A stretch of 64,000 nucleotides of DNA from an uncultured Parachlamydiaceae bacterium (GTDB lineage: Bacteria > Chlamydiota > Chlamydiia > Chlamydiales > Parachlamydiaceae): NCBI GenBank assembly GCA_963752155.1, contig CAVVXH010000004.1, forward strand, positions 32,001 to 96,000, read 5' to 3'. Made by a program: the position numbers. This document shows, one piece after another, positions 21,001 through 24,000 of the stretch; positions within the stretch are counted from its first letter, which is position 1; every line of letters begins with the position of its first letter.

Positions 21001-24000
21001 ACTCGCTCAGGTATCATCCCATAAGCCTGTAAAGCCCATTCTAAAGAAACATAAGAAGGACCATAGATGAGATTAGCCAAGGTCTCTAATGAATATGCGT
21101 GGCGATTAAAAAGCGTTCCAAATACATACAAACCTTTCTTCACTCTGATTAAGGCTTGTGATTTTAGTAGATGTGTAAGTTTTGTCCGAGGAAATTTATA
21201 ATTTTTCAAACAATCCATCACAAAACCATAATCTAATTCCTCAGAAGGCGCTCTAGATCTCAAAACCGCCATAGCCGGATCCATTCTAATTTCTCCTATA
21301 TATGTCCCATATGTTGTTAATTTTACTACATATACGTTAATTTCACAATAAAAAACTCTAATAACCATGGCATATGAAATCAAAACAATTTTTTGGAATC
21401 TGGCGCTATTTCGAGTTTATTTGCTAAAATTTTTTTGGAGTGCGTGTGGCTCTGCCACCGCGAGAGAAGTTGCTTTAAAGATTACTGGCAGCAATACAAT
21501 TTCAATCCAAATAGACTTTTCACAATAGACCTCTCGCGCGGTGGCAGAGCCACACGCACTCCAAAAAATTTTTTACAAGTCAACTTGAAATAGCGCCAGA
21601 TCTAAGGAATTTATTCTGATTTCATATGCCCTGATGATAATCTTCTTAGCTAATCAGCCTCGATCAGAACATATCGTATGGCATTATTACCATAACCCAG
21701 CCTATTCCACACAATCTGATCGGGTTGGACAGCTCCTGAAGCATCCGTAGCACGACTCCGCAGCACAAATCTTCCCGCATAAGGAAGATGAATGTTTAGT
21801 GACCATGGGGTCCATGCATGAGGCCCCTCACTTACACCAAGTTTTGCTTCTTGCCAATTGTCACCTTCAAACCCCACTTCCACACGCGTGATCGGCCCAT
21901 CTCCAGACCAAGCCCATCCAGAAACTTCGACTTTTCGTGTAGTGATCTTACCTCCTTCAACTGGTGAGGTAATAATTGACTTCACTCGAATATGATCAAC
22001 AGGTCTCACTCCATCTTCATCATCGTATACATAACGTTGCTGTTGAAAATATCCGTTGAATGAATCTGTGAGCACATCGATACGTGTTATCCACTTTACA
22101 CTAGCCATTCCGTACCAACCAGGCACTGCTAAGCGAACCGGAAAACCATGCTCACGTGTTAATGGAGCTCCATTCATTTCTAAGGCAAGCAATGTGTCTT
22201 CATGCAACGCAACTTTTATCGGCAAAGAACGAGCAAAACGTACCTTTCCCACAGCATCATCACGAGTGCCTGCATCAGCAGCTGTCACCAAAACTTCAAC
22301 TCCGTCATGAAGGACCCCAGCCATCGCTAATACTTCTGCCAATGAAACCCCTGTCCATACGATTGTAGATACAGCACCATGTTGCCACGGTTCTCCCGCA
22401 GGTACCGGACGCATCCCAAGTCGATCGTTTCCCGCACATTCCATAGTTGCCTTTACACTACGTTGAGGCATCTTTCTTAATGCTTCCACAGTCAAGGTTA
22501 AAGGACGAGATACAGCGCCACCCACCTCAATGACATGAGCTTCAGTCAAAACTGGAATGTCAAAATTAGTTCGAACGTACGCATTTTCACTTGAAGTGGT
22601 TTGAGATACGAGTGCCGACGCTGGTGTTTCTGCATTAAAAGGATCAAACCGAATGACCTCCAAAGCTGAAACTTGAGGACTGAAAAGATGTCTGAATGGC
22701 CAAAAATAAGAGCAAAGATTGCACTTCTGAAACTCATCCGGCTGAGACGACATTCCCAAAAAACTATCCACCTCTTGCGATGATATTCCACTTGCAAATA
22801 CAACTTTATTTGCTTGGAGCTCATTCGTTATCACACAAAAGAAAAAACTAATACAGATAAGAACAAAATAGAACATATACCCCTCATTAATAAAAAATAA
22901 TATGACATTCAATCCAATGTCCATATTGTCCATATTGTTGGGTGGTGACCCTTTTCGTCCTTACATCGAGCACGATCACAGATTGTATTTTTTGCTACGC
23001 AAAAAAACACAACCCACGGCTGTGTTTAGGGACTGTGTAACAATAACTTGCACGATTGGACTTTGGCGCAGCCCTATCGTAAAAGTTATTATTGCACAGT
23101 CCCTAAGTATCATCCATCACAACTTAACTAGTTGGCTGATTCTCTTCTAGAATTTCCAAATTAACTCGTATTCCATTGCGACTTGCAACTGACATCAAGA
23201 GAGTGCGAATCGCATTGATCGTTTTTCCCTTCTTGCCAATAATTTTGCCAATGTCAGATTTTTCGACTGAAAGCTCGATAATAAGGGTTTGGGTGCCGCC
23301 TATTTCATTTATTTTCACTTGATCGGGATGGTCGACAAGATTCTTAACTATGTAAGCTACAAATTCCTTCATAACGCGTTCCTCTTTGAATAATGTTCTG
23401 TGACTTGCTCTTCAGGCTGTAGGCAAAAAAAATAGATCTTGCCCTTTAATTTTCAGATTAGCGCATTAAAGTATTATAACTCTACAAGAAAATGTTTTAG
23501 AGAAAATTCCTTCATTTCATTTGGTAATGGGGCTTCAAATTGAAGAAATTGCTGCGTCAAAGGATGAATAAATTCTAGACGATGTGCATGCAACAGTTGC
23601 CGATCGAATCGATACGTTTGATTGACCTGAACGTTCCCATAAAGGGGATCTCCAAGAACAGGCGTTCCAACAGATCTCAAGTGGACACGTATTTGATGGG
23701 TCCTACCTGTGACAAGAATAATTGAGACTAATGCAAGCTTCCCGTTAAAAGCAAGCGTTCGACATTGGCTAAGTGCTTTTTTTCCATCGGAAACAATCGC
23801 CATTTTTCGATAACACGAGGGACTTCGACCAATAGGTGCATCAATATCAATCGTTCCAGGATTGCCTAGACAAATTGCCAAATATTCTTTATGTATTTCG
23901 CGATTAAAAAAAAGTGTGGTCAATTTTTCGTGCGCTTTGGCTGATTTAGCTGCAACTAAAAGTCCGGTCGTATCTTTATCCAAACGATGTACAATTCCTG

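Follow-up and report, generated by a model that had tools for sequence, protein, structure and literature searches.

How can a bacterium that appears unable to make the molybdenum cofactor (Moco) keep an intact gene for a molybdoenzyme? This question is raised by a SUOX-family gene in a 64,000-nucleotide stretch of DNA from an uncultured Parachlamydiaceae bacterium (the whole stretch analysed here, hereafter the window, in whose coordinates the gene is given). The source genome (G000) comprises 3.13 Mb in 22 contigs and is 80.15% complete. Chlamydiae are cited as a phylum that has abandoned molybdenum enzymes completely (PMC6147048, PMC7759655) and that lacks the molybdenum trait (PMC6147048), and orphan molybdoenzymes in organisms lacking a Moco pathway have hitherto been left unexplained or blamed on poor assemblies. 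The initial annotation of the locus proposed that the product is an exported enzyme working with Moco taken from the host cell.

Results

A haem-free two-domain enzyme of the SUOX family

The gene and its features, all on the minus strand, are as follows:

21650..22876 (-), SUOX-family gene encoding the 408-aa protein P0001, stop codon included (ORF list, translation, Pfam)
22880..22885 (-), Shine-Dalgarno-like GAGGGG, read in the sequence
22811..22876 (-), codons 1-22, N-terminal hydrophobic segment with no twin arginine, either a signal peptide or an anchor (from hydrophobicity)
22673..22810 (-), codons 23-68, linker of variable length with little conservation, modelled at low confidence
22436..22438 (-), codon of Cys147, presumed Mo ligand (TMECAGNDR), from alignment with chicken sulfite oxidase (SO)
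22049..22558 (-), Oxidored_molyb domain (PF00174, Moco-binding), residues 107-276 (Pfam; six-frame match G000:C4:54049-54558)
21668..21994 (-), Mo-co_dimer domain (PF03404, dimerisation), residues 295-403 (Pfam)
23005..23027 (-), terminator-like hairpin after khpA and upstream of the gene (consensus scan; weak)

The longest open frame extends to 22933 on the minus strand (21650..22933, 427 aa), but we favour the ATG at 22876 because the GAGGGG motif lies 3 nt before it, giving an intact frame of 408 aa. The upstream hairpin came from a consensus scan that returned 1 site versus 1.4 expected by chance. Both domains scored well above their Pfam cut-offs (Oxidored_molyb, 1.7e-52 and 177.8 bits against 24; Mo-co_dimer, 7.8e-17 and 62 bits against 22.7), and Cys147 aligned with Cys185 of chicken SO, confirming the protein length, domains and Mo-ligand cysteine reported initially. 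Six-frame searching identified this gene as the sole PF00174 match in the source genome. Its G+C content, given initially as 0.45, was 0.451 compared to 0.384 for the genome, placing it in the top 3% of long ORFs. An AlphaFold2 model built on a 16-row alignment had a mean pLDDT of 65.3, and confidence was low in the cofactor loops. A look-up of sequencing runs covering window 21400-23100 listed none, RNA included.

Presence of PF03404 sets the SO/NR-type members of the SUOX family apart from the YedY/MsrP type, and together the domains and alignment indicate a haem-free two-domain enzyme of this family. The best solved relatives of P0001 were chicken SO (1e-44), plant SO (1.4e-39) and SorA (3e-36); all top solved matches were sulfite-oxidising enzymes (1e-44 to 1e-33), with nitrate reductase at 8e-15. 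Residues R102, R152 and Y282 aligned with R138, R190 and Y322 of chicken SO, which we take to be substrate pocket residues of sulfite-oxidising enzymes. These three residues and Cys147 were invariant in our alignment (A1); across 100 homologues from outside the chlamydial clade described below, each was conserved in at least 97%. The third substrate arginine of chicken SO, Arg450, aligned with L393 of P0001 in the HMMER alignment, with R392 adjacent; R392 was at least 97% conserved outside the clade, but 3 of the 18 clade members have S or Q there.

Moco synthesis markers are missing from genomes that carry the gene

Six-frame searches of the source genome detected no MoaC, MoCF_biosynth, Mob_synth_C or MoaE at E≤1 and no MoeA_N at E≤0.01, using marker searches that had been validated on control genomes (match in 11-14 of 14). 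A tblastn search with ORFs from three chlamydial moa clusters likewise produced nothing relevant in this assembly. The initial observation that no gene of Moco synthesis is seen therefore holds with five markers. Its accompanying argument, that chance loss of six genes is unlikely, is weaker than it appeared, as TatC is also missing from the assembly; it is comparative data that carry the case.

MoaC, MoaE, MoeA_N and Mob_synth_C were missing from all four genomes with a clade member (G000, G050, G401 and G402). One of these, G050, is 98% complete and bears its orthologue on a 347-kb contig; it also has no PF00994 match, and its family (f3) scores 0 of 23. The other two, G401 and G402, are metagenome-assembled genomes whose completeness is not given. 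Because all four orthologue-bearing genomes are without the markers, one of them at 98% completeness, the missing pathway is not just an assembly gap. In the family of the source genome, MoaC was found in 0 of 46 genomes, among them a 99%-complete member of the same genus. The chlamydial positive controls, G109 and G199, matched all four markers and have their Moco genes clustered (G109:C4 and G199:C396). Of the sampled Chlamydiota, 9 of 400 genomes matched PF00174 and 3 of 401 matched MoaC, and no genome matched both. Only two Molydop_binding matches were strong, one of 82 bits in a 1259-aa frame and one of 74 bits in a 1209-aa frame. They lie in G109 and G199, and both genomes with these strong DMSO-reductase-type matches have the Moco pathway.

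Two candidate markers were rejected for phylum-wide use. PF00994 (MoCF_biosynth) had matches in 199 of 400 genomes, the majority of them one frame of ~400-450 aa per genome, which from its length we presume to encode a CinA-type protein; we used it solely for absence in the source genome and in the family of G050. PF01568, considered as a DMSO-reductase-type marker, matched 58 of 401 genomes; in 56 of these the match was partial, scoring no more than 50.5 bits and falling for the most part in frames of ~740-830 aa. The one in the source genome, judged by eye, looks like NuoG, having Fe-S cysteine motifs near its N-terminus.

Chlamydial orthologues share an N-terminus lacking a twin arginine

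P0001 falls in one clade of 20 sequences (SH-aLRT 92), nested among signal-less sequences that, where named, are from Gemmatimonadota. The closest relatives outside chlamydiae were Gemmatimonadota and Myxococcota homologues at 52-66% identity. The initial annotation had stated that Oxidored_molyb occurs in no Parachlamydiaceae, and in our sample one detail differs: a weak 27-bit PF00174 match exists in the same-family genome G075, on a 1.1-kb contig. The protein concerned is 182 aa long and is not an orthologue. One orthologue carries the name MsrP in a public annotation.

The N-terminus of P0001, MFYFVLICISFFFCVITNELQA, is hydrophobic as originally described, with a Kyte-Doolittle maximum of 3.19 over 12 residues, a modelled helix at residues 2-19 and no RR; its signal nature and cleavage were judged from hydrophobicity and by eye. 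In clade members the linker that follows is 0 to about 60 residues long, and pLDDT was below 50 over residues 16-105 of P0001. A hydrophobic N-terminus was present in 13 of 120 homologues, all 13 in the one clade, and none of these 13 had RR within its first 30 residues. The remaining homologues start 4-43 residues ahead of the domain, without a hydrophobic stretch. Periplasmic bacterial molybdoenzymes typically carry Tat signals, and Tat is the expected route for an enzyme that receives its cofactor in the cytoplasm. TatC is missing from the source assembly and present in a same-genus genome; G050 encodes TatC, yet its orthologue also lacks RR. The tree and the N-termini together support the view that the ancestral enzyme had no signal and later acquired an N-terminus lacking a twin arginine.

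The gene lies in a tRNA-linked insert and is under purifying selection

Comparison with the same-genus genome G133 placed the gene in an insert between tRNA-Arg and khpA:

19209..19281 (+), tRNA-Arg (TCT), left border of the insert (ARAGORN)
19282..23123 (no strand), insert between tRNA-Arg and khpA, holding the SUOX-family gene (comparison with G133)
19282..19660 (no strand), genome-wide palindromic repeat elements, MITE-like (45-nt perfect palindrome and 59-nt inverted repeat)
19662..19781 (no strand), vestige of a second SUOX gene/abiEi junction (71-nt copy, then 50-nt copy)
19790..20656 (-), AbiEii-type toxin gene (type IV toxin-antitoxin), in the insert (Pfam PF08843, 4.7e-24)
20649..21284 (-), AbiEi-like antitoxin gene, in the insert (NCBIfam TAA_AbiEi, 6e-11)

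The match to the tRNA (96% identity) and the khpA-rluD match are 173 bp apart in G133:C223, compared to about 3.86 kb here. An insert of ~3.7-3.9 kb thus adjoins a tRNA gene and has no counterpart in a close relative, as expected of a tRNA-linked island. Neither of two other hallmarks of such islands, an integrase gene and a direct repeat of the tRNA 3' end at the far border, was seen: 19282-23123 has no integrase-sized ORF, and no repeat of the tRNA end was found. The AbiEi-like gene scored 42 bits with TAA_AbiEi, below the cut-off of 150, and its longer frame has no Pfam match. By blastn, copies of the MITE-like repeat lie on contigs C4, C7, C8, C11 and C15 among the matches listed. The vestige joins two copied segments, first 71 nt matching 21280-21350 (99%) and then 50 nt matching 21857-21906 (84%), the latter being codons 325-340 of the SUOX-family gene. 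We rejected the possibility of a contaminant contig: the flanks match a same-genus genome at 65-74% identity with order kept on G133:C223, and the insert repeat elements are also found on several contigs of the source genome. The SUOX-family gene is missing from a same-genus genome and is therefore dispensable for the genus.

Neighbours of the orthologues differ by locus, with AbiE in the source genome, an MFS gene and an unrelated AbiE pair in G050, TrkAH at locus L027 and a DsbD-like gene at L108. The AbiE pairs of the source genome and G050 are related at family level only (E 0.005 over 27 residues), indicating that the gene is not tied to one toxin-antitoxin cassette. No conserved neighbour that might hint at a partner or transporter was found at the chlamydial loci or at 12 loci of outside homologues, and no cytochrome gene is adjacent to the SUOX-family gene. 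At one of these 12 loci, a Myxococcaceae homologue adjoins a gene for cysteine dioxygenase, which belongs to a sulfite-generating route.

GC3 of the gene was 0.328, compared to a genome mean of 0.322 ± 0.054 over 698 ORFs and to 0.63-0.90 in the Gemmatimonadota and Myxococcota homologues. Between chlamydial orthologues, pS was 0.59-0.79 and dN 0.10-0.23, with dN/dS of 0.083-0.089 where computable. Since GC3 equals the genome mean and dN/dS is about 0.08-0.09, the gene is not a fresh passenger; these values support a long residence in the genome, to which its synonymous sites are fully adapted. At 93 columns that were at least 97% conserved in 100 outside homologues, 18 clade members kept 1628 of 1674 cells (97.3%). 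Changes in these 18 members at otherwise conserved positions were A245F in 10, A245Y in 1, Q278H in 8, R297L in 5, R373S in 7 and R392S/Q in 3.

Discussion

We propose, at about even confidence, that the apo-enzyme is exported by a non-Tat route, is loaded outside the cytoplasm with host-made Mo-molybdopterin (Mo-MPT), and most likely oxidises sulfite. Chlamydiae would have acquired the gene from a Gemmatimonadota-like donor whose version had no signal sequence, and in chlamydiae the enzyme would have gained an N-terminal hydrophobic signal lacking a twin arginine. Cytoplasmic loading would be impossible because these bacteria are without Moco synthesis. The protein would instead cross the inner membrane unfolded via the Sec route and fold around Mo-MPT beyond it, whether in the periplasm, in the lumen of the inclusion or in the cytosol of the host, and the host cell is probably the source of the cofactor. 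Mo-MPT is the cofactor form made by eukaryotes, and SUOX enzymes use it unmodified. Sulfite would then be converted to sulfate, with electrons passing to O2, as in plant SO, or to a periplasmic c-type cytochrome. The initial proposal of an enzyme using host Moco is thus upheld in its SUOX type, catalytic residues, export-type N-terminus and real pathway absence, whereas no Moco transporter or carrier candidate emerged from the neighbour comparison of orthologue loci. Purifying selection within the chlamydial clade, the adapted synonymous sites and the acquired N-terminus give the proposal further weight.

Several steps have precedents in known systems. Animal mitochondrial SO (chicken 1SOX, human SUOX), the best solved match (E 1e-44 to 2e-43), provides one for Moco loading after membrane translocation: the mammalian enzyme obtains Moco only once translocated into the mitochondrial intermembrane space, where its insertion acts as a folding trap (PMC10574614). 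It differs from P0001, to which it is about one third identical, in its N-terminal cytochrome b5 domain and its transfer of electrons to cytochrome c. According to the same review, in vitro reconstitution of the apo-protein works with Moco taken from elsewhere, and the haem-free plant enzyme uses O2, making its O2-dependent reaction a plausible model for P0001 (PMC10574614). Like P0001, plant SO (Arabidopsis, PDB 1OGP; E 1.4e-39 over residues 67-405) has Moco and dimerisation domains but no haem domain, and shares the Cys ligand and the Arg/Tyr pocket; Arg374 is given as its substrate-binding residue (PMC10574614). In contrast, plant SO is peroxisomal in a cell that makes Moco, whereas P0001 has a bacterial export-type N-terminus in an organism without the pathway.

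SorAB, SorT and SoxCD share the fold of P0001 and likely its reaction (SorA/SorT chains, E 3e-36 to 1e-33), as well as a compartment outside the cytoplasm if P0001 is exported. Their signals are of the twin-arginine type, their Moco is inserted in the cytoplasm, and they have dedicated cytochrome partners, whereas P0001 has neither RR nor an adjacent cytochrome gene. The uncharacterised 'sulfite oxidase' homologues of Gemmatimonadota and Myxococcota have the 93 highly conserved columns in common with the chlamydial clade, but are about 340-355 aa long without a hydrophobic N-terminus, and belong to free-living bacteria that presumably make Moco.

Use of Moco from another organism by a sulfite oxidase is known from nematodes: the cofactor is needed or usable in C. 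elegans and Haemonchus contortus (PMC7619442, PMC7849362), and Haemonchus, which lacks Moco synthesis, needs dietary Moco (PMC7619442). Unlike the bacterium here, these are animals that take up protein-bound Moco from the diet. Against our proposal, free Moco is described as very labile and normally protein-bound, molybdenum utilisation is absent from some protist lineages (PMC6147048), a few otherwise conserved positions are altered in parts of the clade, and the same-genus genome does without the gene. In Albugo, enzymes and pathway have both been lost, which is not piracy (PMC3130010). Neither a chlamydial sulfite oxidase nor bacterial uptake of Moco was described in any paper that our literature searches returned. 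Our broader claim, that this is the first bacterial Moco piracy, in which a signal-less SUOX enzyme gained a Sec-type signal and came to mature outside the cytoplasm with host Mo-MPT, is one that we hold at slightly less than even confidence.

It is unlikely, in our assessment, that P0001 is instead an exported, stable apo-protein kept for a Moco-free role, such as anion or ligand binding, or a structural or host-interaction function in the periplasm or inclusion. Such a role would fit the absence of the pathway from four of four orthologue-bearing genomes, the lack of any uptake system or conserved partner in our comparisons, and the changes at some otherwise conserved positions in subsets of the clade. 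Mo-independent forms were also raised for 'orphan molybdoproteins' by Peng et al. 2018 (PMC6147048), and plant apo-SO has been reported to be rather stable (PMC10574614). However, the Mo-ligand Cys and R102, R152 and Y282 are kept, along with nearly all cells of the conserved columns, and a dN/dS of about 0.08-0.09 over saturated synonymous divergence indicates constraint on the whole catalytic core, not on the fold alone.

We see only a small chance that export and host Mo-MPT are as proposed but the reaction differs, P0001 being a periplasmic S-/N-oxide reductase like MsrP/YedY or oxidising another small oxyanion. With the NCBIfam equivalog models, P0001 came nowhere near the cut-offs (SorA, 198 of 600 bits; SorT, 184 of 570; SoxC, 184.5 of 420), no Arg aligns with chicken R450, no member of the Gemmatimonadota-type subfamily has a solved structure at more than ~35% similarity, and the public MsrP annotation of one orthologue points the same way. 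MsrP is without a dimerisation domain, though, whereas P0001 has one and reached just 42.5 bits with the MsrP equivalog model (cut-off 207). The uniformly sulfite-oxidising top solved matches, the fit of R102, R152 and Y282 to a sulfite pocket and the cysteine dioxygenase gene beside the Myxococcaceae homologue (1 of 12 loci) likewise speak for sulfite.

Slimmer again is the prospect that the bacterium makes its own Moco, through genes in unassembled or unbinned parts of the genome or through an unrecognised pathway. The absence of TatC from the 80.15%-complete source assembly, given its presence in G133, does mean that real genes are absent from this assembly; completeness is unstated for G401 and G402; and one gap could hide all the Moco genes, since these frequently sit together, as they do on G109:C4 and G199:C396. 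Against this, the 98%-complete G050 lacks MoaC, MoaE, MoeA_N, Mob_synth_C and PF00994, with its family at 0 of 23, none of the four markers turned up in any of the four orthologue-bearing genomes, none of the same-family genomes has MoaC, and the 13 signal-bearing N-termini are without the RR of the Tat signal that cytoplasmic loading would call for. A recent non-functional passenger on a small mobile island, not yet decayed, is very improbable and largely refuted: the tRNA-Arg-linked insert absent from a same-genus genome, its toxin-antitoxin pair, MITE-like repeats and second-copy vestige, and the high G+C would suit it, but the GC3 matches the genome mean and not the 0.63-0.90 of donor-type homologues, the frame is intact with a ribosome-binding site, and orthologues in at least three other chlamydial genomes show saturated synonymous sites at low dN/dS.

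We therefore return to an exported enzyme loaded with host Mo-MPT and to what it would mean. The 'orphan molybdoproteins' of Peng et al. 2018 are likewise molybdoenzyme homologues without a complete Moco pathway; in that study most belong to the DMSOR and XO families, many may be due to incomplete genomes, and the category is listed and left unexplained (PMC6147048). The orphan here differs in belonging to the SUOX family, recurring in a clade under selection and carrying an export-type signal. It is conserved under purifying selection across several chlamydial genomes, with an N-terminus refitted without a twin arginine, a combination that would be understandable were the enzyme to encounter its cofactor outside the cytoplasm of the bacterium. 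Should the protein instead prove to be cofactor-free, it would represent a molybdoenzyme fold in new use. If our proposal is true, cofactor scavenging by intracellular bacteria would extend to one of the most labile cofactors known, and host Moco would be predicted to be accessible in the inclusion or periplasm. It would also provide a testable link between chlamydial fitness and the Moco and sulfite metabolism of the host, and host Moco would shape which molybdoenzymes can be kept, with SUOX-type enzymes retained and bis-MGD-type enzymes only where the bacterium has its own pathway.

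A sulfite-oxidase-type protein outside the curated bacterial equivalogs

An open frame on the minus strand (21650..22933 in the ORF list of the window) contains an ATG at 22876, preceded by GAGGGG at 22885-22880, and from this start encodes the 408-aa protein P0001. The initial annotation had named it a sulfite-oxidase-type protein with two domains, and both lie above their Pfam cut-offs: Oxidored_molyb at residues 107-276 (1.7e-52, 177.8 bits versus a cut-off of 24) and Mo-co_dimer at residues 295-403 (7.8e-17, 62 bits versus 22.7). Its top matches among solved structures were sulfite-oxidising enzymes (SO) throughout, with nitrate reductase far weaker.

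Matches of P0001 among solved structures (E-values)
Chicken SO: 1e-44 to 2e-43
6y0k, bacterial 'putative sulfite oxidase': 1e-44
Plant SO (1OGP): 1.4e-39
SorA: 3e-36
SorT-type chains: about 1e-33 to 6e-35
Nitrate reductase: 8e-15

P0001 scored below the NCBIfam equivalog cut-offs for SorA (198, cut-off 600), SorT (184, cut-off 570) and SoxC (184.5, cut-off 420), and much lower on the MsrP model (42.5, cut-off 207). By the structure matches and these scores, P0001 is a SUOX-family member of sulfite-oxidase type that falls outside every curated bacterial equivalog. R102, C147, R152 and Y282 of P0001 aligned with chicken SO R138, C185, R190 and Y322, and chicken R450 aligned with L393, adjacent to R392.

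The SUOX gene lies in a variable, island-like region

In G133, a genome of the same genus, a tRNA-Arg(TCT) match (96% identical) lies 173 bp from a khpA-rluD match on contig C223; in the window the same two landmarks are 3.86 kb apart (19281 to 23143), separated by the following elements:

19282-19660, palindromic repeats, present on several contigs of the assembly
19662-19781, apparent vestige of a second SUOX-abiEi junction (71-nt copy at 99%, then 50-nt copy at 84%)
19790-20656, abiEii (Pfam 4.7e-24)
ending about 21284, abiEi-like gene (NCBIfam 6e-11, under cut-off)
21650-22876 (-), SUOX gene, last element of the insert in window order

The 71-nt part, downstream of abiEii, copies the region just upstream of abiEi and the 50-nt part copies SUOX codons 325-340, which suggests that the junction once existed in a further copy, now largely lost, in a tandem or recombined island. 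Neither an integrase nor a repetition of the tRNA end was found in the insert. A terminator-like hairpin after khpA and a weak promoter-like site ahead of the SUOX gene were both no better than chance. In G050, another chlamydial genome, the orthologue likewise adjoins an AbiEi/AbiEii pair (locus L107, 10927-12427; the window pair spans 19790-21284). The two AbiEii toxins are unrelated beyond family level (BLASTP E 0.005 over 27 residues), and the association therefore either arose twice or reflects toxin-antitoxin-rich variable regions. The setting of the SUOX gene is thus variable and island-like, and the genus can do without the gene: it is missing from G133, which is 99% complete. Across the chlamydial orthologue loci the neighbours differ, with no candidate for an uptake route or carrier.

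Other features were seen nearby. A perfect 45-nt palindrome (19457-19547) within 59-nt inverted arms belongs to a MITE-like repeat family with dozens of copies at 77-100% identity, on C4, C7, C8, C11 and C15 among the matches listed. A distinct 110-nt inverted repeat (83%) lies at 21361-21638, in the interval that separates abiEi from the SUOX stop codon. Immediately left of tRNA-Arg, 17854-19110 (+) encodes a 418-aa MORN-repeat-variant protein (PF07661, 3.3e-19) whose N-terminus looks lipoprotein-like by eye.

Moco synthesis markers are missing from orthologue-bearing genomes

The assembly (3.13 Mb, 22 contigs, 80.15% complete, 4.07% contaminated) had been described as showing no gene for molybdenum cofactor (Moco) synthesis, and whole-assembly six-frame profile searches agree. 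The SUOX gene gave its only PF00174 (Oxidored_molyb) match; MoaC, MoCF_biosynth, MoaE and Mob_synth_C, the C-terminal domain of MoaA, had no match at E<=1, and MoeA_N had none at E<=0.01, while each marker search was positive in 11-14 of 14 control genomes. As an independent check, all ORFs of 110 aa or longer in three moa clusters of chlamydiae (L010-L012) served as tblastn queries; the single match, 49 residues long, was unrelated. TatC was detected in G133 (G133:C30:12799-13614), G075 and G050 and was not found in this assembly; its presence in the same genus marks the assembly gap as real and is a tangible clue to what the missing ~20% may contain. This genome by itself is therefore insufficient for a claim of pathway absence.

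We compared 401 evenly sampled Chlamydiota genomes, 400 of them scored for PF00174 and one left unscored. PF00174 was present in nine of the 400 and MoaC in three of the 401 (G109, G199 and G349), with zero overlap, and MoaC was found in none of 46 genomes of the same family. Among 13 genomes comprising the nine PF00174 holders (this one included), the three MoaC holders and G133, MoeA_N occurred in two (G109, G199) and MoaE in three (G109, G199, G349), so the profiles are able to detect chlamydial Moco genes; MoaC, MoeA_N and MoaE were missing from all nine PF00174 holders.

The nine are heterogeneous. Three (G364, G387 and G297; loci L003, L004 and L007) encode a multi-pass membrane domain N-terminal to a YedY-like Oxidored_molyb domain (~390-500 aa). 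G289 (C34, L005) has a 549-aa frame with a presequence-like N-terminus, a cytochrome b5-like HPGG motif and an SO core, an animal- or protist-type SO that may represent either a contig of host origin in the MAG or a gene acquired from a host. G385 (C9, L006) encodes a haem-free SO-like protein with no signal, and G355 and G075 gave fragments or weak matches. The sole true orthologue among the other sampled holders was P0006 of G050, on a 347-kb contig in a 98% complete genome; two further named Chlamydiota MAGs carry orthologues (L027 and L028, genomes G401 and G402). The orthologue holders beyond the original genome, not previously checked for Moco genes, lacked every marker searched: MoaC, MoeA_N, MoaE and Mob_synth_C were unmatched in G401 and G402, and G050 also lacked Mob_synth_C and PF00994, the latter found in none of 23 genomes of its family. 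Four independent markers are thus missing in all four genomes with clade members, for two of which the completeness is stated (80.15% for the window's genome, 98% for G050).

Separately, G364, G387 and G297 are also without MoaC, MoaE and MoeA_N, so their fusion proteins make up another class of SUOX-fold 'orphan' within the phylum. G109 (C4:18742-26137, L010) and G199 (C396/C384, L012) carry clustered moaA-moaE-moaB-like-moaC-moeA genes and, in a frame of 1209-1259 aa, a strong Molydop_binding match; G349 is a third Chlamydiota genome with MoaC and MoaE.

SUOX enzymes use plain Mo-molybdopterin (Mo-MPT), the form made by eukaryotes, and DMSO-reductase-type enzymes need bis-MGD. Strong Molydop_binding matches occurred in only two of the 401 genomes, G109 and G199, both with their own pathway; the other 56 were weak, partial and mostly in ~740-830-aa frames, and that of the window's genome, read by eye, is probably NuoG. 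This pattern would fit the Mo-MPT/bis-MGD distinction and is suggestive only, given small numbers and related genomes.

A putative non-Tat export signal marks the chlamydial clade

The signal-peptide-like head reported for P0001 proved recurrent: 13 of 120 listed homologues begin with a markedly hydrophobic stretch (Kyte-Doolittle maximum 2.26-3.19 over 12 residues), after which come a small residue and, in most cases, Glu, with no twin arginine in any of the 13. Whether the stretch is a cleaved signal or an anchor was judged by eye. The remaining listed homologues start 4-43 residues ahead of the 'LEVIR..NAE' domain start, with a hydrophobic maximum of at most 1.72. Between signal and domain lie 0 to about 60 poorly conserved residues (modelled pLDDT <50). 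SorA, SorT, MsrP and periplasmic molybdoenzymes in general leave the cytoplasm already folded, via Tat, because Moco is inserted there, which makes a non-Tat signal on a molybdoenzyme an anomaly; such a signal would fit an organism without cytoplasmic Moco to insert. G050 has TatC and its orthologue nonetheless lacks a twin arginine, so the Tat route appears open to G050 but unused for this protein.

The gene is old and under purifying constraint

In a search of 5.8 billion clustered proteins, the closest relatives among the matches listed were 57-72% identical; few carry source names, and the named ones include one 'Chlamydiales' and one 'Chlamydiota' MAG protein. The next relatives (~340-355 aa) are, where named, Gemmatimonadota 'sulfite oxidase' at 56-65% identity. 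A quick maximum-likelihood tree (76 rows, LG+C20+F+G4, SH-aLRT support only, rooted on Actinomycetota) recovered one chlamydial-type clade of 20 rows (support 92) comprising all 13 signal-bearing proteins, P0003, P0004, P0008, P0014, P0047 and the two named Chlamydiota loci; P0003, P0004 and P0008 are probably start-truncated. The clade is nested among other sequences, of which the named ones are Gemmatimonadaceae or Gemmatimonadota, with Myxococcota further out.

The gene's G+C, reported as 0.45, was recomputed as 0.451, a value among the highest 3% for the genome's 698 long ORFs, and its GC3 was 0.328 versus a genome mean of 0.322 +/- 0.054 (0.63-0.90 in five Gemmatimonadota and Myxococcota homologues). 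The excess therefore lies in codon positions 1 and 2, that is, in conserved amino-acid composition. Its synonymous sites are fully adapted to the genome, and the gene is a long-standing resident of AT-rich genomes rather than a new import.

Nei-Gojobori counts on the catalytic core (residue 72 onward) of four chlamydial genes gave pS of 0.59-0.79, saturated in the three pairs containing the window's gene, dN of 0.10-0.23, and dN/dS of 0.083-0.089 in the three pairs where dS was computable. At 93 columns, conservation reaches at least 97% among 100 homologues from outside the clade, which mostly lack a source name and are labelled 'free-living' by assumption. In these columns 18 clade members (fragments P0055 and P0067 left out) match the consensus in 1628 of 1674 cells (97.3%). 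The 46 departures fall at 16 positions, 34 of them at five (A245F/Y in 11 members, Q278H in 8, R373S in 7, R297L in 5 and R392S/Q in 3); P0001 departs solely by A245F, the chicken SO residue there. This pattern suggests a working rather than a decaying enzyme.

Host cofactor as the candidate source, and its rivals

Sequence comparisons show an old, selected, catalytically intact SUOX enzyme whose export signal was probably gained on entry into a lineage unable to make its cofactor. The protein would be exported unfolded, acquire Mo-MPT outside the bacterial cytoplasm, with the eukaryotic host as the only plausible source, and once loaded would oxidise sulfite. This is the simplest reading using all the data, namely age, selection, intact catalytic residues, export signal and absent pathway. 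Loading after export is chemically reasonable given passages of PMC10574614, in which in vitro reconstitution of apo-SOX works with Moco of other origin, mammalian SOX gets Moco only once it has reached the mitochondrial intermembrane space, and O2 reacts with haem-free SOX. A periplasmic cytochrome c is as possible an electron acceptor as O2, since all five genomes tested encode a cytochrome c assembly protein; no partner gene adjoins the SUOX gene. Moco is labile and normally bound to protein, which counts against acquisition from the host, and the dissimilar orthologue neighbours, with no carrier or uptake candidate, weaken it further. We give Moco piracy by the orthologue-bearing chlamydiae somewhat less than an even chance.

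Among the alternatives, a cofactor-free role for the protein is unlikely yet a serious rival, because Peng et al. 2018, in passages of PMC6147048, list 'orphan molybdoproteins' and suggest either unknown pathway components or Mo-independent forms. Action on another substrate, which would leave the cofactor logic unchanged, seems improbable. An unseen Moco pathway in the bacterium, for which the assembly gap leaves room, is slightly less probable again, weakened mostly by G050 and by the absence of MoaC from all 46 same-family genomes. That the gene is a dead passenger is largely excluded, being contradicted by the GC3 and dN/dS results.

In one of 12 loci outside the clade (L044, 6815-7642, from a MAG of Myxococcaceae), the gene immediately after a signal-less SUOX homologue encodes a type I cysteine dioxygenase, which hints that the subfamily may handle sulfite from cysteine breakdown.

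A chlamydial sulfite oxidase and Moco uptake by a bacterium had both been put forward as new, and our literature search found no earlier report of either; tables S1 and S2 of the Peng et al. supplement may list such proteins. Nematodes are already known to rely on Moco from outside (PMC7619442, PMC7849362). The Moco genes of G109, G199 and G349 run counter to the statement, in passages of PMC6147048 and PMC7759655, that Chlamydiae lack molybdenum utilisation. P0001 itself is a new member of a known family, and the novelty lies in its joining of a non-Tat export signal, an absent pathway and clade-wide selection.
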